A stretch of 64,000 nt of DNA from a bacterium UBP13_UBA5359 (GCA_002410925.1 DHPR01000010.1:30295-94294); one strand, 5' to 3'; numbered from the stretch's first letter, positions 7,297 to 63,151 are shown. A program made the numbers and translations. The notes: generated from the sequence alone by a model not told the origin.

Positions 7297-7725
7297 ATGA
7301 AGTATAAATCAATTCTCGTTCCGATCAATGGTGCCGATTATGCGGAAGAAATGATTGACTTGGCTTGTAAGCTGGCAGATCGGGATGAGGCTGAGCTTCA
7401 TGCTTTATATGTTTTTGTCGTTCCGCGAACACTGCCCATCGATGCTTCGGTTCCTGCAGAAGAGAATAAAGGCGCAGAGATACTGGCCCGTGCAGAAGCT
7501 GCCGCCGCCTCTGCCGGCGTAAGCATCAGGACGCATTTCTATCAATCCCGTTCTGCCGGAGTATCCGTTTTGGATGCCATTGAACGTTTACAGGCAGATC
7601 TTGTTATTCTGGGCGTAAGCGGTGAACCTCGGGTGGGTGGTATATTCTTTGGCACCACAACCGATCTTGTTTTAAAAAATGCGCCCTGCCGGGTATTGAT
7701 CGGCAGAGCCGGCATGGAGGATTGA
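7297..7725 (+). CDS. Universal stress protein (UspA family)
   Basis: About 140 aa with the Usp fold pattern (ILVPINGADYAEE ... LVILGVSGEP ... VLKNAPCRVLI). Confidence 0.7.
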   Translation: MKYKSILVPINGADYAEEMIDLACKLADRDEAELHALYVFVVPRTLPIDASVPAEENKGAEILARAEAAAASAGVSIRTHFYQSRSAGVSVLDAIERLQADLVILGVSGEPRVGGIFFGTTTDLVLKNAPCRVLIGRAGMED

Positions 7726-7726
7726 A

Positions 7727-8380
7727 ATGAAGATAGTGATTATGGGCTGCGGGCGTGTGGGCGTATTGCTTGCCAGAATACTGGACAGCGAAGGGCATAA
7801 GGTAGCGGTGATAGACAGAGATAGCCAGGCGTTTGGCGGCCTTTGTGAAGAGTTTCAAGGGCGTATGATAGCCGGTAACGGCATTGATGCCGATGTGCAG
7901 CGTGAGGCGGGTATGGCAGAAGCCGATGCCTTTGTAGCCGCCACCAGGGATGACAATACCAACATCATGGCGGCCCAGGTGGCCAAAGAGATATTCGGTG
8001 TTTTCAAGGTAATAGCCAGGATATATGATTCGGAGAGAGAGCATATCTTTCATGAGCTCGGTCTGAAGACCATATGCCCCGTTACGGTGGGGGCCTTTCA
8101 GATAAGGAATGCTATTCTTGCCGATACACTAAGACGTATACCTTTGGAAGCAGCCAATAATCTAGAGCTTATCGAAACTGCGCTTCCGGAAGGTCTTGAC
8201 GGCAAGAAAGTGCGCGATATCCAGAGTCCCGGAGAGATCAGAGTTGTCGCTCTGGAAAGAGAGGGTTTATCTATCATACCCGGCGGGGATACCTTATTGA
8301 AGAGTGGCGATACCATAACTATCGTTATTTCCAGGGATGTAATGCCCAGGCTACAGGCTCTTATAGGTATAAAGGCATAA
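7727..8380 (+). CDS. RCK/TrkA-family K+ transport regulatory protein (KtrA-like)
   Basis: N-terminal Rossmann motif IVIMGCGRVG (RCK_N) plus a C-terminal RCK_C-like segment. Confidence 0.75.
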   Translation: MKIVIMGCGRVGVLLARILDSEGHKVAVIDRDSQAFGGLCEEFQGRMIAGNGIDADVQREAGMAEADAFVAATRDDNTNIMAAQVAKEIFGVFKVIARIYDSEREHIFHELGLKTICPVTVGAFQIRNAILADTLRRIPLEAANNLELIETALPEGLDGKKVRDIQSPGEIRVVALEREGLSIIPGGDTLLKSGDTITIVISRDVMPRLQALIGIKA

Positions 8381-19030: not shown

Positions 19031-19735
19031 GTGCCGATGACAGCACATTTTATTTATCGAAAAAAGAAGGGCTTTACTTTAATCGAACTTTTAGTCGTTA
19101 TTGCTATAATAGCATTGCTGGCAGCCATATTATTTCCTGTCTTTTCACGGGTCAGAGAGAAGGCCAGGCAGACGACCTGTGCCAATAATCTCAAGCAGAT
19201 TTACCTGGCGATATCGATGTATGCCAGCGATAACGATGGCTATTTCCCGTCCGGTTGGCAATATTATCCTTATCATGGAGGTTATCCTTACGTTGGAGCC
19301 TGGGCATGGATGACAGGGCTTTATCCGTCATATGCGCCCTCCAAGGAAATATTCTTTTGTCCGGGCACCAGCAGCGCCTTCAAGGGACGAGAGCACTTTA
19401 TAAAAACTTGGGGGGGCTACCAAACCGGGTATTTTTACTGGCCTGATTGCGACGGACGGTGGGCCGGCGGGGTGGCATATGGGTATTATCGTAGCTATAT
19501 GGGGCGCTCGGCCGGTTACGTGGCGCCTTTGGGGCCTGTCGCGGAGGATGACGATCACGGGAAGCCCATCGTGCAGGACGCGTGGGTGGGAAGAGGGGCT
19601 GCTAACAGCAATCATGCGGCACCGGGAGGCCAGCCCTACGGCTTGAACTGTCTCTTTTTTGAAGGCAATGTTATTCATTATCCGTCAGAGAAATTATCAT
19701 TGTACGGCAGTGGTACTTTGATATGCCGACCGTAA
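19031..19735 (+). CDS. Prepilin-type N-terminal cleavage/methylation domain protein (DUF1559-like)
   Basis: Class III signal [46 protein letters not shown] and a degenerate C-terminal NCLFFEGNV element. Confidence 0.7.
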
Positions 19736-35276: not shown

Positions 35277-35353
35277 ACCTGTTTCAGTAATTAAAAGAGC
35301 TTGCTCTGAAGGCTGAAGCAGAACGCTCAAGCATAATTAGGCTGAAGGCTCCT

Positions 35354-35387
35354 GCAACAGCCTGCCAGAGCCCGGGCAGGCTGTTGC
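35354..35387 (+). terminator. Perfect 13-bp stem hairpin (GCAACAGCCTGCC / GGCAGGCTGTTGC) downstream of the kinase/ANTAR operon
   Basis: Seen directly. No U-tract, so it could be a Rho-dependent or processing site rather than a canonical intrinsic terminator. Confidence 0.4.
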
Positions 35388-35478
35388 GGCAAAAGCGCTC
35401 CAATTGTATAATTATAAGCAGAAAACTTATACATTTTAAAGGGTTATTCATATTTACTGTAGCCCTTAAAGGAGCAAG

Positions 35479-36162
35479 ATGAACCGGGTGGAGAATATTA
35501 TAAACATTATGAATATGGAGAGAGCTTTTTCGGAAGAGGAGCTGATCAGACCCTTTGACCGTAAGGATATCAAATCTCGTGAGGGTGCTTATGGAAAAAG
35601 GCTGGATTACATCGAAGGGCATAAGGTTATAGAGCGCTTGAATAGAGCTACCGGTAACAGATGGAGCTCCGAAGTCATATCCGTACAAAAGCATCAGGCT
35701 GAGCAGCGCACTGATAAGCGTACCGGAGAGAGCATTTCTTATCCATCTTACTGGTCGGCTTTGGTCTCCCTGACCATACCCTCTATGGGTAGTCGTATGC
35801 AAGTTGGAACAAAGGCTATAAACGGCAATGAAGAGGATGATATCAAAGGAGCCATAACGGATGGCTTAAAGAAAGCGGCTACACTCTTCGGCGTTGGTCT
35901 GGAGCTGTATGAAACCGCTGATGAAGAGGCTGATATACGCTATTCGGCAGAACCGGAGCGACGAAGAGAGCCCGATAAAATAACCGAAGGACAGCGTAAA
36001 CTTCTTTTCACTATCTGTGAGGAAATAGGTATCCCCGTTGAAAAACAGCGTGAGCATATAGAAGCTAAGCTGGGGGCCATCATCGAGGGTGCTACGCGAG
36101 GCATGGCTACCATAGCTATTCAGGAGCTCAAAGCTGAGAAACGCCTCTTACGTGCCGGCTAA
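35479..36162 (+). CDS. Rad52/Rad22-family single-strand annealing protein (DdrA/Sak-like)
   Basis: DYIEGHKVIERLNRATGNRWSSEV and KGAITDGLKKAATLFGVGLELY match the two conserved Rad52 N-terminal blocks as I recall them. Confidence 0.6.
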   Translation: MNRVENIINIMNMERAFSEEELIRPFDRKDIKSREGAYGKRLDYIEGHKVIERLNRATGNRWSSEVISVQKHQAEQRTDKRTGESISYPSYWSALVSLTIPSMGSRMQVGTKAINGNEEDDIKGAITDGLKKAATLFGVGLELYETADEEADIRYSAEPERRREPDKITEGQRKLLFTICEEIGIPVEKQREHIEAKLGAIIEGATRGMATIAIQELKAEKRLLRAG

Positions 36163-36392
36163 TCCTCTTTATTAAGAGTACTTCCGCTGTCTTGCTTGCC
36201 GTGTGAATGGGCGGCTGATAACCAGGATTAAAGAAAAGCTTTAAAGGTCTCCTTTGTCAGCTCTTTTGGCTTTAAAATTGCAGATATTGCAACAGGCAGG
36301 CTTTCAGGTGCTTTCTCAATCTGCATATATACAAGGAGCAGACCAGGTGTGCGGCATAATCCCCGGCAGGGAAGGCTGTTAGGAGGTAAGGA

Positions 36393-36725
36393 ATGGATAA
36401 GAGGATAGACAGGCAGATGGATCTTAAGGTTGAAGTTGTCTATGAAGAGGGCAATCCATATGTCAATCTTTCGGGTGAAATGGATGTCTACACTTCGCCC
36501 AGAGTCAAGCAGGCGGCACTGAATCTTATTGCCGAGGGCAAGCATCATTTGATCTTCGATCTTACCAGAGTGGATTATATAGATACCGCCGGCCTGGGAG
36601 TGCTGGTGGGCATCCTCAAAAGAGCCAGGGAAGTTGGCGGGAATGTTGAACTCTGTTATTCCGATCAGGTAAAGAAAGTTTTTGAAATAACCGGATTGAA
36701 TAAGATATTCTCTATCAGAGAATAA
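36393..36725 (+). CDS. STAS-domain anti-sigma-factor antagonist (SpoIIAA/RsbV-like)
   Basis: 110 aa STAS fold with the conserved DYIDTAGLGVL segment. Confidence 0.75.
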   Translation: MDKRIDRQMDLKVEVVYEEGNPYVNLSGEMDVYTSPRVKQAALNLIAEGKHHLIFDLTRVDYIDTAGLGVLVGILKRAREVGGNVELCYSDQVKKVFEITGLNKIFSIRE

Positions 36726-36837
36726 ATTTATTTTGCACTGTGCAGGAAATCAAAATTTTACGTCGAATAATTAATTTAGCCGATTAAATTGAATATGGGT
36801 GCCTATGACGCGGGTGCCGGCTTGTGAAGGCCTTAAT

Positions 36838-36873
36838 GATCGCCTTCTCCATTTTGGGGGCGGTCTTTTTTTA
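36838..36873 (+). terminator. Intrinsic terminator candidate: 7-bp stem with GU pair followed by T7
   Basis: GATCGCC ... GGCGGTC hairpin followed by TTTTTTTA, between the two STAS genes. Confidence 0.45.
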
Positions 36874-36902
36874 TCCGCTCCAGTAAAAACGGAGGTAATA
36901 TC

Positions 36903-37277
36903 ATGAAGTCTTTCTTTCCCCTGAGCATATCCGTTTCCGGAGAAGCCGTATCACGTGTTAAGCTTAAAGGTGAACTGGATGTCTATACCTCTCCAAAGCT
37001 CAGCGCAGTCCTGGGCGACCTTCTGGAACAGGGATGCATCCATATTATTCTGGACTTAGGTCGGCTGCAATTTATAGACAGCGCCGGCCTTGTTACTCTT
37101 GTAAGGCATAATGAAGAAGCCGCCAGAGCAGGCGGCAGCCTGATATTGCTGGACCCCGGCGCCCAGCTGAGAAAAGTGCTCAGGCTAACAGCTTTGGACC
37201 GTCATCTGCGGATAGAATTCAGCGCTGTGCGGAACAAGGAGACGGCTCCCCAAATGAAGGGGGCGGGTTATGCTTGA
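36903..37277 (+). CDS. STAS-domain anti-sigma-factor antagonist, second copy
   Basis: STAS pattern (KLKGELDVYTSPKL ... LQFIDSAGLVTLV). Confidence 0.7.
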   Translation: MKSFFPLSISVSGEAVSRVKLKGELDVYTSPKLSAVLGDLLEQGCIHIILDLGRLQFIDSAGLVTLVRHNEEAARAGGSLILLDPGAQLRKVLRLTALDRHLRIEFSAVRNKETAPQMKGAGYA

Positions 37278-37632
37278 GACGACAATATCTCTGCCTGGAA
37301 TGGATAAAGAGGCCATGCTTCTATGCGATAAAGGCATGAACTCCTTTCTGAAACTGGATATAATTCTTTTTTATCACAACAAGCGGTTATCCGATGCTGA
37401 TATAAATGAGCTTGCTCGCTATACGGGCAGATCACCGGTAGAGGTTGGAGATGCCGTATCGGCTTTGATCGAAGATGGCTTGCTGGAGTTATCTTCCAAT
37501 CGCAATGAAAGATACAGGCTTAGCGGTTTTCCCGATATCCCCAGGCTCTTGAACAAGTTCCTGGAAGCGTATAATCGATTGCCTCAGCGGCTTGCCATCC
37601 TGTCCAAGTTCTTGCGTGAGAATAGGTATTAG
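37270..37632 (+). CDS. Hypothetical protein, possible winged-helix domain
   Basis: 120 aa, no recognisable catalytic motif; overlaps both neighbours, suggesting co-translation in the partner-switching operon. Confidence 0.3.
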   Translation: MLETTISLPGMDKEAMLLCDKGMNSFLKLDIILFYHNKRLSDADINELARYTGRSPVEVGDAVSALIEDGLLELSSNRNERYRLSGFPDIPRLLNKFLEAYNRLPQRLAILSKFLRENRY

Positions 37633-39307
37633 CTGCGGGAATAGGGCGGGTGAAGAATTGAACGAAGATCTTCTCAGCGCATTGCGGAAATACTTTGAGC
37701 TCATGGCTGCTGCAGCACATCCGGGAAATATGAAGCAGGCATTTGCCGATATATTGGATAATACGATATCGGTTTTATCGGCAAACGGCGCGGCACTTTA
37801 TGCGAATACAGGCTCTGAAACTATGGGTGAGATCTTCATATGCAGAGAATTGCCGGATAATCTGTGTGATGAGCTGCAACGGCTCGGAGGTGCTGACAGC
37901 CTCAATGCGGATGCCAGGGAGGAGAACGTGAAAAGGGTCGACGGCGGCTTTTTGTATTCAGTGCTTATACGTCAAAAGCCGGTAATATGTCATCTCTTTG
38001 TATTGTATGAAAAGTGGCTTCCGGGTGAAGCCGAAAAGAAGGTGGCCTGCTCTCTGGCCGAGCTCTTTCTGGCATTGATATGCGAGCAAAGCCATTATCG
38101 GGAATTGGAGCAGCGTATGTATGAGAGCGTTGCTTTAGCCAGTATCGGGCGTACTATCGTTTCCACACTCGATATGGAAAGGGTCCTCAATCAAGTTGTC
38201 AAAATGGTTGCCTATGTAATGAACGCCGCCGTCTGCCTGATTGTTCTTTATGACGAAGAGGAAGGAGAACCGGCAGTGGGAGCTGCTTTCGGTATGGAAC
38301 GATTGGAAGAGAGTTCCGGCATTGTACGCCACGCGATAAATATATACAAGAGGGTGGAAGCGTTGCATAACGGTATTGATTGCAATACTGCAGAGAAATA
38401 CCTGGGCAGATTATGCTATATGGCGGTTCCACTCTTCTCCGGTGAGAGGATCAACGGAGTCGTAATTGTATACAGGGAAGAGGCTTTTTTTGAACATGAA
38501 AGGTCACTGATGCAGGCAACCGCTGCTCAGGCCTCGATTGCCCTGGAAAACGCACGCTTGCACAGCAGCCTGGCATCATTTACAGAACGTGAACTGCGTT
38601 TGGCTGCCGGAATACAGCAAGGCTTGCTTCCCAGGTCTCTGCCCCATACTGCTCAATACGATTTCGGTAGCAAGATACATTTTATGCGTGAAGTCGGCGG
38701 AGATTATTATGACATAATATCCCTCGGCAACGGGCGGCAAGGCATAAGTATCGGTGATGTATCCGGCAAGAGCGTTCCTGCTGCCATTCTGGTGGCTATG
38801 GCAAAGTACGTTTTGCGTGCTTCAGCAGTGACGGAGAATGACCCTGCGAGATCTCTGGAAGCCGTCAATCGCAATATTATCAATGATCTCTCTCCGGAGA
38901 TGTTTATAAGCATGTTCTATGGAATTCTGAATCTTGCCGATAACAAGCTTGTTTATGCCAATGCCGGTCATGAGCCGCCGCTGCTTTTCAGAGAACGTAG
39001 CCATAGCTGCCGTTTTTTGCAGGCGACAGGCGTAGTGCTGGGCGTAATGAGTAATAGTTCTTATCAGCACGCTACTGTGAAGCTTGAACAGGGTGATTGG
39101 CTGGTTCTATATACTGATGGCGTTACTGAGGCCAGGAAGAGCGACGGTGAACTTTTCGGCAGCCGTCGCGTTTGTGAAGCTCTTGAGCGCAATCATCATA
39201 TGCCTGCTCAGATTATGGCGGAGTATCTCTTCAAGGAGGTTTATGATTACTCCACCGGTAAGATAAGCGATGATGTAGCAATTCTGGCGATTAATAGAAT
39301 TGAATAA
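37592..39307 (+). CDS. GAF-domain PP2C-type serine phosphatase (RsbU/SpoIIE family)
   Basis: C-terminal SpoIIE/PP2C block (VGGDYYDII ... GDVSGKSVPAA ... LYTDGVTEA). The N-terminal start is uncertain because the ORF overlaps the upstream gene. Confidence 0.8.
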   Translation: MPSCPSSCVRIGISCGNRAGEELNEDLLSALRKYFELMAAAAHPGNMKQAFADILDNTISVLSANGAALYANTGSETMGEIFICRELPDNLCDELQRLGGADSLNADAREENVKRVDGGFLYSVLIRQKPVICHLFVLYEKWLPGEAEKKVACSLAELFLALICEQSHYRELEQRMYESVALASIGRTIVSTLDMERVLNQVVKMVAYVMNAAVCLIVLYDEEEGEPAVGAAFGMERLEESSGIVRHAINIYKRVEALHNGIDCNTAEKYLGRLCYMAVPLFSGERINGVVIVYREEAFFEHERSLMQATAAQASIALENARLHSSLASFTERELRLAAGIQQGLLPRSLPHTAQYDFGSKIHFMREVGGDYYDIISLGNGRQGISIGDVSGKSVPAAILVAMAKYVLRASAVTENDPARSLEAVNRNIINDLSPEMFISMFYGILNLADNKLVYANAGHEPPLLFRERSHSCRFLQATGVVLGVMSNSSYQHATVKLEQGDWLVLYTDGVTEARKSDGELFGSRRVCEALERNHHMPAQIMAEYLFKEVYDYSTGKISDDVAILAINRIE

Positions 39308-39508: not shown

Positions 39509-41050
39509 ATGTCGGGAGGCGTTATGCAGACTAAAAAAGAGGTAACTGATAATCTCGACCAGCTGTTGCAGGTGCTTCCGCCTTCGATCAGGAAGAATCT
39601 GGAAGCGCAACGGAATTTGAGTGATCTCATAGAGGTTGTTCTGGATTTGGGACGAGAGCCGGAAGCTCGCTTTCCGGATAAGTTCGTTTATCTTGAAAAC
39701 AAGTATGTTTTCGAAAGTGATCTGGAGTATGTAACCGCCCGGGTGAGCGATTTCGGTAAAGATAATCGTGCCGGAATAGAGCGTACGCTGCATCGCATTT
39801 CGGCCGTACGTAACCGCCAGGGTAAGATAATAGGACTCACCTGCCGCGTAGGACGTGCTATATACGGCACAATCGATATTATCAGAGATATAGTTGAGCA
39901 GGGCAAGAGTATCCTCCTGTTAGGCCGTCCTGGTGTAGGCAAAACCACCAAACTGAGAGAGGTGGCACGCGTTCTCAGCGATGAGCTCTTGCAGCGCGTT
40001 ATAATAGTTGATACTTCCAATGAGATCGCCGGCGACGGCGATGTGCCTCATCCCGCTATCGGCCATGCCCGGCGTATGCAGGTGGCTTCTCCCGAACTTC
40101 AACATGACGTCATGATAGAGGCAGTGGAGAACCATATGCCCCAGGTGGTTATCGTGGATGAGATCGGCACGGCGCTGGAAGCCTTTGCCGCCAGAACCAT
40201 AGCAGAAAGAGGTGTGCAACTGATTGCCACGGCACACGGTAACACTCTGGATAACCTGATAGTCAACCCTACTCTATCCGATCTGGTCGGAGGAATACAG
40301 ACGGTTACCCTGAGTGATGAGGAGGCCAAACGGCGTGGCAGCCAAAAATCGGTGCTGGAACGTAAAGGACCGCCTGCCTTTGATCTTCTGATCGAGATCA
40401 TGGATAAAAACAAGATGGCTGTACATCATGATTTGGCACATGTAGTAGACCAATTTCTGAGAGGTGTTCTGCCTCGACCGGAAATAAGAGTGATCACGTC
40501 GGATGGTCTGGTAGAGAAGATACGTCCTACAGAATTGGAAAATGCTCTTACCAGGCAGCCGGAACGCTATGAAGCCAGAGAGAATGTGCCGGCGTTGCTC
40601 AGGCTCTTCCCTTACGGCATCAGTCGCAACCGTTTGGAGCGGGCTATTCGGGAATTGAGGGTACCGGTTCAAATTACAAAGTTTATGGATGACGCCGATA
40701 TGATTATTACTACCAAGGCTCAACAGCGGCGTGAGCCCAGAGTGCTGCATCAGGCAGAAGAGACGGGTAAGCCATTGCATATCCTGAAAAGCAACACAGT
40801 TTCACAGATAGCTTCCTGCCTGCGGGAGATCTTCAAAATTACTGATACCTCGGAAGAAGAGGAGGCACTGAGTGAGACCGAGGAGGCTATCGAAGAGGTC
40901 GTTTCCGGGCAGGTGGAAACGTTGGAGCTCAGGCCCAGGAATGCATATATCAGGCGTTTGCAGCATCAGCTTATAGAGGAGCATGGTATTCAATCGGAAA
41001 GTATAGGGAGGGATCCCTATCGCAGAGTAAGAGTGTATAAGGAATGGTAG
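39509..41050 (+). CDS. AAA-family ATPase with C-terminal R3H nucleic-acid-binding domain (SpoIIIAA/Ycf45-like)
   Basis: Walker A LLGRPGVGKTT, Walker B VVIVDEIG, and a C-terminal R3H-like segment. An alternative start is the ATG about 15 nt downstream. Confidence 0.6.
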   Translation: MSGGVMQTKKEVTDNLDQLLQVLPPSIRKNLEAQRNLSDLIEVVLDLGREPEARFPDKFVYLENKYVFESDLEYVTARVSDFGKDNRAGIERTLHRISAVRNRQGKIIGLTCRVGRAIYGTIDIIRDIVEQGKSILLLGRPGVGKTTKLREVARVLSDELLQRVIIVDTSNEIAGDGDVPHPAIGHARRMQVASPELQHDVMIEAVENHMPQVVIVDEIGTALEAFAARTIAERGVQLIATAHGNTLDNLIVNPTLSDLVGGIQTVTLSDEEAKRRGSQKSVLERKGPPAFDLLIEIMDKNKMAVHHDLAHVVDQFLRGVLPRPEIRVITSDGLVEKIRPTELENALTRQPERYEARENVPALLRLFPYGISRNRLERAIRELRVPVQITKFMDDADMIITTKAQQRREPRVLHQAEETGKPLHILKSNTVSQIASCLREIFKITDTSEEEEALSETEEAIEEVVSGQVETLELRPRNAYIRRLQHQLIEEHGIQSESIGRDPYRRVRVYKEW

Positions 41051-44123: not shown

Positions 44124-44210
44124 TGGTGCCGAAGCGGGGAGTTGAACCCCGACGAGCCATCGCTCACTAGGTCCTGAACCTAGCGCGTCTACCAATTCCG
44201 CCACTTCGGC
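44124..44210 (-). tRNA. tRNA-Leu (anticodon CAG)
   Basis: Reverse complement reads GCCGAAGTGGCGGAATTGGTAGACGCG ... with a perfect 7-bp acceptor stem, anticodon loop TTCAGGA, long variable arm, T-arm GGTTCAACTCC and 3' CCA. Confidence 0.8.
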
Positions 44211-47472: not shown

Positions 47473-47498
47473 TTTCATTGGGAAAGGGGGTGAAAAGC

Positions 47499-47690
47499 AT
47501 GGCAGAGAATAAGGGCAAGATAACGGTTGGCGAGGCCGGCCATAAGGGCGGGGAGTTGGGCGGTGAAAAGGGCGGAGAGACTACCCGTGAGCGCTATGGT
47601 CATGAATTTTATGAAGAGATCGGCCATAAAGGCGGCCAGAAGGTTAAAAAACTGATTGAAGAGGGTAAAAGAGCATTGGGCGAAAAGTAA
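47499..47690 (+). CDS. GsiB-like KGG-repeat stress protein (hydrophilin), copy 1
   Basis: MAENKGKITVGEAGHKGG ... RERYGHEFYEEIGHKGGQKVKKLIEEGK. Own RBS GGGGGTGA. Confidence 0.8.
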   Translation: MAENKGKITVGEAGHKGGELGGEKGGETTRERYGHEFYEEIGHKGGQKVKKLIEEGKRALGEK

Positions 47691-47777
47691 CTCTATGCAG
47701 AAGCATAATGAGTTTAGCATTATGTGTGAGTCCGTATGTGATTGAACGTAATGCCGGGAAAGAAGGGGGTGAAAAGC

Positions 47778-47939
47778 ATGGCAGAAAACAAGGGCAAGAT
47801 GACGGTCAGCGAGGCCGGCCAAAAGGGTGGAATAACCGTACGGAACAAGTATGGCCATGAATTTTATGAAGAGATCGGCCATAAGGGCGGCCAGAAGGTT
47901 AAAAAACTGATTGAAGAGGGCAAGCGTTCAGGCGGCTGA
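47778..47939 (+). CDS. GsiB-like KGG-repeat stress protein, copy 2
   Basis: MAENKGKMTVSEAGQKGG ... YGHEFYEEIGHKGGQKVKKLIEEGKRSGG; one internal repeat. Confidence 0.8.
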   Translation: MAENKGKMTVSEAGQKGGITVRNKYGHEFYEEIGHKGGQKVKKLIEEGKRSGG

Positions 47940-47996
47940 CTTACAATTCTCGGATAACAGGTTAAATAAGAAAGAATTACGGAGGGGGTGAAAATC

Positions 47997-48278
47997 ATGG
48001 CAGAGAATAAGGGTAAGATGACGGTCAGCGAGGCCGGCCAGAAGGGCGGGCGCACGACCAAGCAGCGCTATGGTCACGGTTTTTACGAAGAGATAGGCAA
48101 GAAGGGCGGGATGACCGTGCGCGATAAATATGGCCATCCTTTCTATGAGGAGATTGGCGGTAAAGGCGGCGAAGCAGTACGCGATAAATATGGTACGCCT
48201 TTCTATGAAGAGATCGGACACAAAGGCGGTCAGAAGGTTAAAAGGTTGATCGAGGAAGGTAAGAAGAGTATGAAATAA
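47997..48278 (+). CDS. GsiB-like KGG-repeat stress protein, copy 3
   Basis: Three YGxxFYEEIGxKGG repeats. Confidence 0.8.
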   Translation: MAENKGKMTVSEAGQKGGRTTKQRYGHGFYEEIGKKGGMTVRDKYGHPFYEEIGGKGGEAVRDKYGTPFYEEIGHKGGQKVKRLIEEGKKSMK

Positions 48279-48370
48279 CCGTAGTTCGCAAACTCATAGC
48301 TCGATCAAAGGCCTGATGGCAGCTTGAATGGTAAATAAGCAATAAATCGAGCATGGAAGGGGGTGAGAGG

Positions 48371-48604
48371 ATGGCAGAGAATAAGGGCAGGATGACGGTC
48401 AGCGAGGCCGGCCAGAAGGGCGGACGCATGACCAGGGAGCGTTACGGTCACGGTTTTTATGAGGAAATAGGGCAAAAGGGCGGCGAGATAGGTGGCGAGA
48501 CCACCAAGGAGCGTTATGGCCATCCCTTCTATGAGGAGATCGGGCACAAAGGCGGTCAGAAGGTTAAAAAGCTGATTGAAGAGGGCAAAAAGAGTGGAGG
48601 CTGA
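48371..48604 (+). CDS. GsiB-like KGG-repeat stress protein, copy 4
   Basis: Two YGHxFYEEIGxKGG repeats and the conserved C-terminus. Confidence 0.8.
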   Translation: MAENKGRMTVSEAGQKGGRMTRERYGHGFYEEIGQKGGEIGGETTKERYGHPFYEEIGHKGGQKVKKLIEEGKKSGG

Positions 48605-48725
48605 TTCATAGCGCATGCCGTGCAACTCATAGCTTGCCAATGTTCTAATCGTTGCTTTGGACGGAGCGTAGAGCAACTGTAAAGGAGCGATGAGGTGCGG
48701 GTACTGAGCAAGGAGGTGATTGCAA

Positions 48726-49085
48726 ATGCCTGAAGAGAAAAAAGGCAAGATGACGGTTGGTGAAGCTGGACAGAAGGGCGGCGAGAGCACTAGTCGCAAA
48801 TACGGCAAGCCCTTTTACGAAGAAATCGGCGAGATGGGCGGGGAAACAACTAAAGAACGCTATGGCCATGAGTTCTATGAAGAGATTGGTCAAAAGGGTG
48901 GCGAAAAGGGTGGCGAAACCACCAGGGAGCGTTACGGCCATGAGTTTTATGAAGAGATAGGTGAAAAAGGCGGCGAGACCACCAGTCAGAAATATGGCAA
49001 ACCCTTCTACGAGGAGATTGGGCACAAAGGCGGTCAGAAGGTTAAAAAGCTGATTGAAGAGGGCAAGAAAGCTGAACATGAATAG
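48726..49085 (+). CDS. GsiB-like KGG-repeat stress protein, copy 5
   Basis: Four repeats. ATG after an AAGGAGGTGA RBS. Confidence 0.8.
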   Translation: MPEEKKGKMTVGEAGQKGGESTSRKYGKPFYEEIGEMGGETTKERYGHEFYEEIGQKGGEKGGETTRERYGHEFYEEIGEKGGETTSQKYGKPFYEEIGHKGGQKVKKLIEEGKKAEHE

Positions 49086-49125
49086 GCTGTGAATTTAAAC
49101 AAAGAATCGATAAGGAGGTGTAAAG

Positions 49126-49344
49126 ATGGCAGAAAAAGGCAAGATGACGGTCAGCGAGGCCGGGCAGAAGGGAGGGCGCACTACCAGGGAGCGTTACGGC
49201 CATGAGTTCTACGAGGAGATAGGTGAAAAGGGTGGAACCACGGTACGTGAGAAGTACGGCACGCCCTTCTACGAGGAGATCGGCCATAAGGGTGGACAAA
49301 AGGTTAAAAAGCTGATTGAAGAGGGCAAGAAGGCCATGGGATAA
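49126..49344 (+). CDS. GsiB-like KGG-repeat stress protein, copy 6
   Basis: Two repeats. RBS AAGGAGGTG. Confidence 0.8.
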   Translation: MAEKGKMTVSEAGQKGGRTTRERYGHEFYEEIGEKGGTTVREKYGTPFYEEIGHKGGQKVKKLIEEGKKAMG

Positions 49345-49440
49345 AGTGAACGTATGGCGAGCGAAGGTTAGCAGATGTAATAAGGCAAGAGGCAGGGTTA
49401 CTATTTGACCCATGCCTCTTCCTCTTTGAGAGGAGAGCAT

Positions 49441-61067: not shown

Positions 61068-62150
61068 ATGAAGGTTGGCATAATCGGTTTGCCCCTATCG
61101 GGTAAATCGACTGTTTTTAATAGCCTGACAGGCGGAAATGCCGCTGTCAGGTCCTGGCAGAGCAAGAGCGAGGAGGCCAACATCGGTACCATAAAGGTGC
61201 CTGATGAACGCTTGCAACGCCTGAGTGAGATCTATACACCCAGGAAGACCACCCCGGCGGAGGTGGTATTTGTGGATATGCCCGGATTGGAAAGCGATCC
61301 TGCTTCAGCTCGCGGCCTGGATAGTGTCTTTGTGCAGCAAGTTCAGGATGTCAATGCATTTGCTCTGATTCTGCGTGCCTTTGCCGATGCCAATCTGCCC
61401 CATCCCCTTGGGCGCATCGATCCATTGGAAGATTTCAAATCCGTCATTATGGACCTTATTCTCTCCGATATGTCGGTGATTGAGCGCCGTCGCGAGCGGT
61501 TGACCCGTGATATACAGCGCGGCAAAGAAGAGGCTCGCCGAGAGATGGCCGTCATCGAGCGGTGTGCCGCTTTGCTGGAGGATGAGCAATTGCTTTATCA
61601 GCAGGAGTTTAGCGATGAAGAGAGTCGCTGGCTGCGCGGCTATCAATTTATGACTATGAAACCGTTATTGGCGGTTATAAATGTGGATGAAAATCCGGAT
61701 GATAGCTTGCTGGCGTCCCTGAAGGATTATCTCGCCGGGCGCAAGCTGCAATTTATCCAGCTTTCCGCCAGGATAGAGATGGAGATAGCTCAATTACCGG
61801 CTGAAGAGCAGGCTGAATTTTTGGAAGAGCTCGGTATCACCGTCTCTGCCAGGGATCGTTTTATCCGGGCTGCTTATGGTCTTTTGAACCTGTCATCCTT
61901 CTTTACCGTCGGCCCCGATGAAGTCAGAGCCTGGACCGTTGAAAAGAACGAGCCGGCGGTTGAGGCCGCCGGAGCCATTCACTCGGATATTTCCCGTGGC
62001 TTTATTCGGGCGGAGGTCATTGCCTATGATGATTTCATGCGCGTGGGCGGCGACATGAATGCCGCCAAAGCCCAGGGGCTGCTTCGCCTGGAAGGCAAGA
62101 CCTATCCTGTTCAGGACGGGGATATCATCAATTTCAGGTTCAACGTCTGA
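61068..62150 (+). CDS. ychF: Redox-regulated ribosome-binding ATPase YchF
   Basis: G1 motif GIIGLPLSGKST and a C-terminal TGS domain. Confidence 0.9.
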   Translation: MKVGIIGLPLSGKSTVFNSLTGGNAAVRSWQSKSEEANIGTIKVPDERLQRLSEIYTPRKTTPAEVVFVDMPGLESDPASARGLDSVFVQQVQDVNAFALILRAFADANLPHPLGRIDPLEDFKSVIMDLILSDMSVIERRRERLTRDIQRGKEEARREMAVIERCAALLEDEQLLYQQEFSDEESRWLRGYQFMTMKPLLAVINVDENPDDSLLASLKDYLAGRKLQFIQLSARIEMEIAQLPAEEQAEFLEELGITVSARDRFIRAAYGLLNLSSFFTVGPDEVRAWTVEKNEPAVEAAGAIHSDISRGFIRAEVIAYDDFMRVGGDMNAAKAQGLLRLEGKTYPVQDGDIINFRFNV

Positions 62151-62173: not shown

Positions 62174-63151
62174 ATGGGCATTCCGGAACTCCCGCGCGGG
62201 AGGAGCGCCCTCTTCACCGGCAGGCTGGGCTTTGCCGTCAAGGTGCTGGGAAAGGGCGGTCTGCCTTCACACGATACCCGGCGCTGGCAGAGCGGGCCAC
62301 ATCTGCGCGTCAGCCTGGCTTATCTGGACAGAGTTCTCGATTATCTGGACGAAAATGATATTCGCATGTACCGCATGAGCTCCGATATCGCTCCTTATCT
62401 GACCCACCCGGAACTGCTGCAATTCCATCATCAACTGGAGGAATGCGCCGCCGGTCTGGCCGCCTTAGGGGCCAAAGCCCGCCGCCTGGATATCCGGTTG
62501 AGTCTACACCCATCCCAGTTTGTGGTGCTCAATTCTACGGATGAGGAGATTGCCGCCAAGGCAGCCCGTGATCTGGAAGCCCAGTCCTCCATCCTGGATG
62601 CCATGGGTCTGGACGATGAGGCTGTGGTGGTCACTCACGTCGGCGGGCTCTACGGTGATCGCGAGGCGGCCATTAAGCGCTTCATCGCCCGTTACTCCGG
62701 GCTGGATAAGGCGGCCAAACGCCGGGTGGTGCTGGAAAACGACGAGCCTCTCTTCAGCGTAGCCGATATCCTGCGCGTTCATCAGGCCACCGGCGTCAGA
62801 CTGATATTCGATTATCTGCATCACATGCTCAACAATCCTGAAGGCCTCGCTCTGCGTCCCTCCCTGGAAGCCTGTCTCCATACCTGGCAGGACAGGGGCA
62901 GGCCGAAAATCCATTTCAGTTCACCCCGCACCGAGATGAGAGAGGTCGCTCGCAAAGAGAGCGGACGTAAACTCACGGAACTGCTGCCGCCCGATTACAC
63001 CGGCCATTCCGACTACATCAACCCCTTTGAGTTCACCCTCTTTATCGGAGAAACCACAGGCCTCGAATTCGATATAATGCTGGAAGCCAAGGCCAAGGAT
63101 CTGGCCTTGCTGAGATTGCGGGAAATTCTGTCCGCTCCGCCGGTTATCTGA
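62174..63151 (+). CDS. uvdE: UV DNA damage endonuclease
   Basis: Blocks LHPSQFVVLNS, VLENDE, FDYLHH, IHFSSPRTE and DIMLEAKAKDLALLRL are collinear with UvdE/UvsE as I recall it. Confidence 0.85.
   Translation: MGIPELPRGRSALFTGRLGFAVKVLGKGGLPSHDTRRWQSGPHLRVSLAYLDRVLDYLDENDIRMYRMSSDIAPYLTHPELLQFHHQLEECAAGLAALGAKARRLDIRLSLHPSQFVVLNSTDEEIAAKAARDLEAQSSILDAMGLDDEAVVVTHVGGLYGDREAAIKRFIARYSGLDKAAKRRVVLENDEPLFSVADILRVHQATGVRLIFDYLHHMLNNPEGLALRPSLEACLHTWQDRGRPKIHFSSPRTEMREVARKESGRKLTELLPPDYTGHSDYINPFEFTLFIGETTGLEFDIMLEAKAKDLALLRLREILSAPPVI

Follow-up and report, generated by a model that had tools for sequence, protein, structure and literature searches.

Within the 64-kb window, by which we mean the whole stretch of DNA analysed here, positions 35479–36162 (+ strand) hold a complete gene for a Rad52/Rad22-family single-strand annealing protein (SSAP). 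In our reading, to which we assign a probability of roughly 0.6, the product is a functional Rad52-type SSAP that derives from the exonuclease–annealase module of a phage or mobile element, and the gene, having lost the nuclease and the mobile context, is now inherited vertically as a host gene. The data establish membership in the Rad52-type SSAPs, the fold, the conservation of the groove residues, a setting outside mobile elements, synteny and purifying selection, and the host probably uses the gene. The family, the fold and the likely chemistry are already known; what is new is that the gene, in a deep-branching uncultivated lineage, is an orphan inherited vertically, a status that is well supported.

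The open reading frame begins with an ATG located 4 nt downstream of a ribosome-binding site, AAAGGAG (35468–35474, + strand; read from the sequence and conserved in the relative L004), in line with the ribosome-binding site of its own that an initial annotation of this DNA had given the gene. It encodes a product of 227 aa, and the same protein is found on NCBI and ENA contigs. Some gene callers choose an alternative start at M13, which yields 215 aa (P0001); because residues 1–12 are conserved in relatives and are modelled as a helix by AF2, we prefer the longer product. The assignment to the Rad52/Rad22 family, also made in the initial annotation, was borne out by the profile search proposed there: the Pfam profile PF04098 (Rad52_Rad22) gave a strong match (E 4.5e-20) of 72.5 bits, above the gathering score of 20.3 bits and extending over profile positions 7–148 of 153, i.e., most of the domain. 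The eukaryote-type NCBIfam model TIGR00607 (rad52) scored 27.2 bits and stayed below its cut-off of 224.8; judged by its sequence, the protein is outside the eukaryote-type RAD52 subfamily. Phage SSAP families of PHROGs match weakly (E 4.8e-5 and 1e-3), and a phmmer search of the PDB with the window protein retrieves human RAD52 (E 0.007).

Structure prediction, the second check suggested at the outset, led to the same family. The AF2 model of the 227-aa protein, built on 32 homologues, has a mean pLDDT of 88.6, and its N-terminal annealing domain (aa 20–157; 35536–35949, + strand), delimited from the Pfam envelope and Foldseek, is predicted to adopt the RAD52 N-terminal annealing fold of a beta-sheet, a long helix and a beta-hairpin. 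Searching with this model, Foldseek ranked human RAD52 first (probability 1.00, E 6.6e-9), followed by Mgm101 and the Sak protein of phage 80-alpha, the latter also represented among the fold matches by the Sak–Stl structure 8qe9; the best low-rmsd superposition was obtained with yeast Mgm101 (9yi6; rmsd 2.6 Å over 133 columns). The inner ssDNA groove of human RAD52 contains the basic and aromatic residues R55, Y65, K152, R153 and R156. In the phmmer alignment to 1h2i, the first four of these residues align with R34, Y44, K131 and K132 of the window protein, and the position of R156 is occupied by T135, such that four of the five groove residues are kept. In the alignment of the 32 homologues no exchange is seen at R34, K131 or K132, and conservation of Y44 reaches at least 90%. 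Two further features set off parts of the model. An insertion of ~15–19 aa (aa 72–90; 35692–35748, + strand), modelled as an extra beta-hairpin with strands at 75–78 and 85–88, is found in the clade of the window protein and in P0005, P0175 and P0176 and is missing from the other homologues aligned, making it a marker of the subfamily. A linker (aa 150–162; 35926–35964, + strand), with pLDDT values below 50 and a length and sequence that vary among homologues, is predicted to be flexible.

Beyond the linker lies a three-helix domain (aa 169–226; 35983–36156, + strand), which is modelled by AF2 with a pLDDT of 95.7 when taken alone and shows 72–85% identity within the clade. Among low-rmsd matches in the PDB, the top ones are structures of the C-terminal domain of lambda Red-beta, either with lambda exonuclease (6m9k) or with the C-terminal peptide of SSB (8tfu and 8tg7), at TM scores of 0.61–0.70, an rmsd of ~3 Å and E-values of 0.7–1.5, which are not significant for a domain this small. 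The modelled domain thus resembles the partner-binding domain of Red-beta, in a match that is statistically non-significant. A helix-turn-helix C-terminal domain of the Red-beta type has been noted in a survey as common to several SSAP families (PMC8093625). In sequence searches, the window's own C-terminal domain matched no family in Pfam, those of its relatives matched weakly to DUF3072 (8 of 19) or Mu GemA (3 of 19), some relatives carry a precomputed GemA annotation (PF06252), and a profile of the domain retrieved only designed repeat proteins and noise from the PDB sequences.

The region upstream of the gene contains several conserved elements. A putative sigma-70-type promoter (TTGCGG, 17 nt, TATAAT; 35384–35412, + strand) was read from the sequence; a consensus scan overlooked it, the -35 element matching at 3 of 6 positions, though three species show no change in the -10 hexamer or in the TTG of the -35 despite a dS of up to ~1.4. 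Overlapping the -10 is an inverted repeat, TGTATAA-N15-TTATACA (35405–35433), that is unique in the window, where 0.03 occurrences are expected by chance, and that has each of its arms retained in L004 and L005. From these sequence features we infer that the Rad52 gene has a dedicated promoter of its own and possibly an operator. Upstream of this promoter, between it and the preceding regulator gene, a GC-rich RNA hairpin lacking a U-tract is predicted (35352–35389, + strand); it includes a perfect 13-bp inverted repeat and has a fold z-score of -4.2. Of the 16 pairs predicted by RNAalifold, four have changed on both sides in a compensatory manner, and where one side alone has changed, G-U pairing is possible on the + strand only. 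The hairpin probably marks the 3′ end, or serves as the terminator, of the upstream kinase–regulator operon. The spacer also contains short repeats (window positions 35306–35350) that follow the pattern GGCTGAAG. In L005, where the spacer is 320 nt long as opposed to 202 nt in the window, these have grown at ~7660–7830 into a long inverted repeat (AGGCTGAAGGCTGAAG ... CTTCAGCCTTCAGTCTTCAGCC) around ~100 nt, and may represent a small repeat element or structured RNA. Control by the SOS response was considered and rejected, as the motif GAAC-N4-GTTC of a LexA box does not occur anywhere in the 64-kb window.

The initial annotation had placed the gene between a two-component system and a partner-switching module. 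The former stands, with a GAF-HisKA_2 kinase and a Response_reg-ANTAR regulator directly upstream; of the latter (36393–39307), two STAS proteins, a 120-aa protein and a GAF-SpoIIE phosphatase are present, but an RsbW/SpoIIAB-type kinase is not recognizable within this locus. The 120-aa protein has no match in Pfam and a weak one to a PHROG "transcriptional regulator" (E 8e-4). This arrangement raises the alternative that Rad52 is an output of the flanking signalling, either through antitermination by the kinase and ANTAR regulator at the hairpin or through the STAS/SpoIIE module, so that stress-induced DNA protection would form one regulon with its neighbours. The strictly conserved order regulator–Rad52–STAS fits such a view, as do the position of the covarying hairpin between the ANTAR gene and Rad52 and the lack of a predicted canonical terminator in the interval from Rad52 to the first STAS gene (STAS1). 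However, ANTAR antitermination was rejected because the three orthologous spacers contain no conserved pair of hairpins with the A..G.. hexaloop and Rfam yields nothing at gathering or relaxed thresholds. The hairpin, without a U-tract and lying upstream of the TTG-17-TATAAT promoter, probably ends the operon before it. Moreover, in the next-closest kinase–regulator pairs elsewhere (51–57% identity) the downstream genes are unrelated. Downstream of Rad52, at 36267–36282 and ~110 nt upstream of STAS1, lies TGGCTTTAAAATTGCA, which conforms to TGGC-N7-TTGCA with the -24/-12 spacing of sigma-54 promoters; as 1.6 such patterns are expected by chance in the window, its conservation in all three species is the sole support for this element. 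By this sequence criterion the STAS/SpoIIE module may be sigma-54-dependent, and a separate element before STAS1 suggests that Rad52 is a transcription unit of its own. We therefore regard a role as signalling output as unlikely, though it fares better than the other alternatives considered below.

The origin of the gene is best approached through its relatives outside the clade. All of those sampled for which the context was examined reside in a prophage or mobile element, usually beside a PD-(D/E)XK nuclease. The nearest outgroups, P0005 (57% identity) and P0175 (58%), share the hairpin insertion and directly follow a PDDEXK_1 nuclease gene in phage- or ICE-like contexts: CobS–CobT/VWA–PDDEXK_1 nuclease–Rad52 with overlapping gene ends for P0005, and ParB, Phage_rep_O, DUF932 and PDDEXK_1–Rad52–RadC for P0175. 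P0007, P0027, P0026 and P0255 belong to prophages that also encode serine or tyrosine recombinases, CI-like repressors, HNH, RusA and methylases, and ten Rad52-family loci were found on IMG/VR viral contigs. In a census of two ORFs on each side at 37 non-redundant loci, PDDEXK_1 was the commonest neighbour (15 loci), followed by DUF6908, DUF932, ThiF, RadC and Mu Gam. Because the insertion also occurs in both of the nearest outgroups, we consider it most probable that the host clade arose from an exonuclease–annealase module of which the nuclease was lost.

Some genomes in this set carry the family in several copies. Five to seven Rad52-family genes per MAG are present in some Myxococcota MAGs (L026–L047) and in a CAWFUX MAG (L012–L016 and L052), and some "delta proteobacterium" MAGs likewise have five to seven. 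The repeated block comprises genes of ~207 and ~210 aa upstream of Rad52 and one of ~260–270 aa downstream, the latter probably a PDDEXK nuclease, which points to a multicopy mobile element in L026–L047, L012–L016 and L052. By comparison, the Rad52-family genes of a Zixibacteria MAG (L007, 9908–10612) and a Hatepunaea MAG (L051, 9968–10432) lie between large genes on the opposite strand and have no small ORFs on the same strand as neighbours; these may be further orphan, non-mobile copies.

Another alternative is that the gene is a selectively neutral leftover, the last surviving gene of a decayed prophage or integrative element, with no function for the host. The mobile location of all sampled relatives outside the clade is in keeping with this, an SSAP without its exonuclease is what an eroded module would be expected to leave behind, and 8 kb downstream (44124–44210) there is a gene for tRNA-Leu, of a kind often used as an integration target. 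Against it stands the evolutionary record of the gene. Several public contigs carry an identical Rad52 protein with the same neighbours, and orthologues occur in two other species-level MAGs (L004, 88% identity; L005, 81%) and on a metagenome contig (L059), the gene order HD–LytR–kinase–regulator–Rad52–STAS being identical in the window, L004, L059 and L005. Between the window and L004, Rad52 has a dN/dS of 0.19 at a dS of 0.30, with a dS of 0.28–0.31 for the neighbouring kinase, regulator and LytR genes; between the window and L005 the values are 0.08 and 1.37, with 1.35–1.77 for the same neighbours. As its dS equals that of the neighbours and its dN/dS is low, Rad52 has diverged together with them under purifying selection, and the data indicate vertical inheritance. 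An open frame that is intact in three species at such divergence, with the annealing domain, the C-terminal domain and the promoter region all conserved, speaks against a leftover.

Composition leads to the same conclusion. The codon usage of Rad52 is typical of the window (chi2/df 1.31 against a median of 1.25) and thus fully ameliorated, its GC3 is 0.47 as compared to 0.515 ± 0.049, and no GC anomaly is seen at the gene. Direct repeats flanking Rad52 that might resemble att sites were restricted to short, chance-level matches. No other remnant was found up to the tRNA, the STAS, SpoIIE, tmk, holB and yaaT genes in that interval being core genes. We therefore judge the leftover reading very unlikely and return to that of a retained host gene.

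The claim of the initial annotation that the gene is chromosomal and free of phage context was upheld over the full window. About 60 ORFs, nearly all on the + strand, were scanned with Pfam or PHROGs; all that could be assigned are housekeeping genes, and neither a prophage remnant nor any phage gene, be it for an integrase, a terminase, a capsid or another function, was found among them. Upstream of Rad52 are the HD, LytR, kinase and regulator genes, and downstream the two STAS genes, the gene for the 120-aa protein, GAF-SpoIIE, SpoIIIAA-like/R3H, tmk, holB and yaaT. Elsewhere the window encodes rpiB, glyA, a dCMP deaminase, a wecA-like protein, UDP-GlcNAc 2-epimerase, Usp, two TrkA, a V-type ATPase operon and a sugar-utilisation cluster with GH123 and GH130, as well as tRNA-Leu, ClpP, RimK, PBP1, guaA, hpt, rho, ychF, uvdE and HtrA. 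Ten ORFs had no match in Pfam; eight of these were scanned against PHROGs and gave no phage-structural or integrase match. Four consecutive small ORFs on the minus strand (47475–49440; 135, 97, 167 and 132 aa), in a region otherwise on the + strand, had no match in Pfam or PHROGs. The features that define an exonuclease–SSAP module are likewise absent within the window: the immediate neighbours of Rad52 encode the ANTAR regulator and a STAS protein, no nuclease or ssb partner gene is found in the 64 kb, and the location is not that of a prophage, ICE or plasmid. Beyond these 64 kb, the genome may still encode an exonuclease partner or harbour a prophage.

The last alternative, that the annealase is kept for foreign DNA, whether for recombination of incoming ssDNA during transformation or as a decoy or means of interference against phages, draws on satellites and defence systems being known to target phage SSAPs or to be triggered by them (PMC11846896), on the 80-alpha Sak–Stl complex among the fold matches and on a C-terminal domain of a type common to many mobile-element proteins, but it is slightly less probable still than the leftover reading, as PADLOC gives no match for Rad52 and nothing beyond noise for its neighbours, the locus lies among core replication and housekeeping genes and not in a defence island, and competence genes are absent nearby. 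One protein of the region, the SpoIIIAA-like/PTPase/R3H protein encoded next to tmk (39509–41050), has a weak PADLOC match to mad8 over residues 129–208 (E 3.8e-7), which is probably due to shared similarity of the ATPase domain.

How widely the gene is shared can be described for a small group of genomes. YchF (61068–62150) has matches of 94% and 88% identity in the two species-level relatives L004 and L005 and is at most 52% identical to anything further among 5.8 billion proteins; judged by this sequence, the lineage of the window organism is very isolated. We scanned metagenomes with the ANTAR regulator for a sister lineage that has the regulator and STAS genes without Rad52 and found none among 80 loci; one of these (L059) is orthologous, and it carries Rad52. 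This outcome is explained by the isolation of the lineage, given the 52% identity of YchF to its nearest outsider, and the statement that the gene is fixed in the lineage rests on few genomes, that is, on three or four species-level members. A member with 70% identity (P0004) is known from one 928-bp contig only. With respect to the affiliation of the organism, the gene orders rpiB–glyA and tmk–holB–yaaT and the families LytR_cpsA_psr, DUF948 and DUF378 look Bacillota-like, and an N_methyl/DUF1559 protein (19031–19735) is more typical of the PVC group.

The initial annotation had also taken Rad52, together with a uvdE gene, as consistent with DNA end-protection or repair capacity. The uvdE gene is real (62174–63151; PF03851, E 2.9e-51), but the association is not supported. 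The two genes are 26 kb apart with ~25 unrelated genes between them, and they differ in composition: uvdE is atypical for the window (GC 0.586; GC3 0.68 versus 0.515 ± 0.049), with a codon chi2/df of 2.35 that lies beyond the 90th percentile of the window, which hints at a more recent horizontal acquisition. On the grounds of distance, intervening genes and composition, a functional link between Rad52 and uvdE was rejected.

If the gene is indeed a retained host annealase, a mechanism can be proposed by analogy with characterized relatives. The N-terminal domain would assemble into an oligomeric ring, in which the basic groove containing R34, Y44, K131 and K132 would bind ssDNA with the bases exposed, and complementary strands bound in the groove might be annealed and/or 3′ ends shielded. 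Annealing and protection are indistinguishable here, because DdrA of Deinococcus protected ends in vitro without annealing them. The C-terminal three-helix domain, on its flexible linker, may recruit the protein to a partner. As no cognate exonuclease is encoded nearby, the most likely candidate is the C-terminal tail of the host SSB on SSB-coated ssDNA. In the cell, the protein could act independently of RecA in single-strand annealing repair, end protection or gap repair, in analogy with DdrA, and it would be transcribed from its own conserved promoter, overlapped by the conserved inverted repeat as a possible operator. All of these points, from the ring and the annealing or end protection to SSB binding and regulation, are inferred. 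Taken to its full extent, the proposal is that of a second independent domestication after DdrA, fixed in all known members of the lineage, free of an exonuclease, recruited to host SSB via a Red-beta-like domain, active in RecA-independent annealing or end protection and controlled by a repressor–operator of its own; this combination is more tentative than the main reading, and we rate its chances at somewhat below even.

Bacterial Rad52-type annealases have been treated almost entirely as phage equipment, with DdrA as the one studied host-encoded example, and surveys that catalogue more than 1,100 bacterial Rad52-family proteins pool those of bacterial and phage origin (PMC11783212). If our reading is correct, bacterial hosts have more than once taken over phage annealases to serve in their DNA metabolism, and the window protein would offer a compact SSAP of 227 aa, with a defined partner-binding domain at its C-terminus, on which SSB-dependent loading could be tested and which could be added to recombineering libraries. 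In practical terms the consequence is modest, as close homologues are already correctly named in public annotation; the 81% homologue is labelled "Rad52/Rad22 family DNA repair protein" by NCBI.

Among known systems, the nearest precedent in function is DdrA (DR0423) of Deinococcus radiodurans. Both genes are chromosomal, lie outside a prophage and have no adjacent exonuclease gene, and both proteins are assumed to work at ssDNA ends in repair that does not depend on RecA; the window gene shares with ddrA the combination of a chromosomal location, vertical inheritance and a position outside mobile elements. DdrA forms an oligomer of ~8–10 subunits that attaches to the 3′ ends of ssDNA and shields them from exonuclease I; it did not anneal strands in vitro, and it has a part in recovery that is independent of RecA (PMC515370). 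Neither DdrA nor any other Deinococcus protein was among the homologues found for the window protein, which we liken to DdrA by description and not by sequence; orthology is unlikely for this reason, and an independent domestication is the most likely explanation. Unlike DdrA, the window protein belongs to a different deep-branching host lineage and has a Red-beta-like C-terminal domain, and its gene, with no LexA box in the window, gives no sign of induction by damage.

Sak-type SSAPs, such as those of lactococcal phage ul36 and staphylococcal phage 80-alpha, which are part of exonuclease–SSAP or SSAP–SSB modules, belong to the same Pfam family and have the same fold and architecture, consisting of the annealing domain, a linker and a small helical C-terminal domain, and the nearest relatives of the window protein (57–58%) are themselves members of PDDEXK_1 nuclease–SSAP modules. 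In contrast to these modules, the window has no nuclease, ssb, replication-module, integrase or structural genes, and the gene has host-like codon usage and is vertically inherited. Eukaryotic RAD52 and mitochondrial Mgm101 have the same N-terminal annealing fold, with R55, Y65, K152 and R153 of human RAD52 conserved, but identity is only 20–23%, R156 is replaced by T135, and the window protein has the extra hairpin insertion and lacks the C-terminal half with which RAD52 binds RPA and RAD51. Lambda Red-beta differs in its N-terminal part, which belongs to the RecT/Red-beta family as opposed to the Rad52/22 family, and its C-terminal domain, which the modelled domain of the window protein resembles at non-significant E-values, is 9–13% identical; in Red-beta that domain binds lambda Exo and the C-terminal tail of SSB, as given in the titles of the structure entries.
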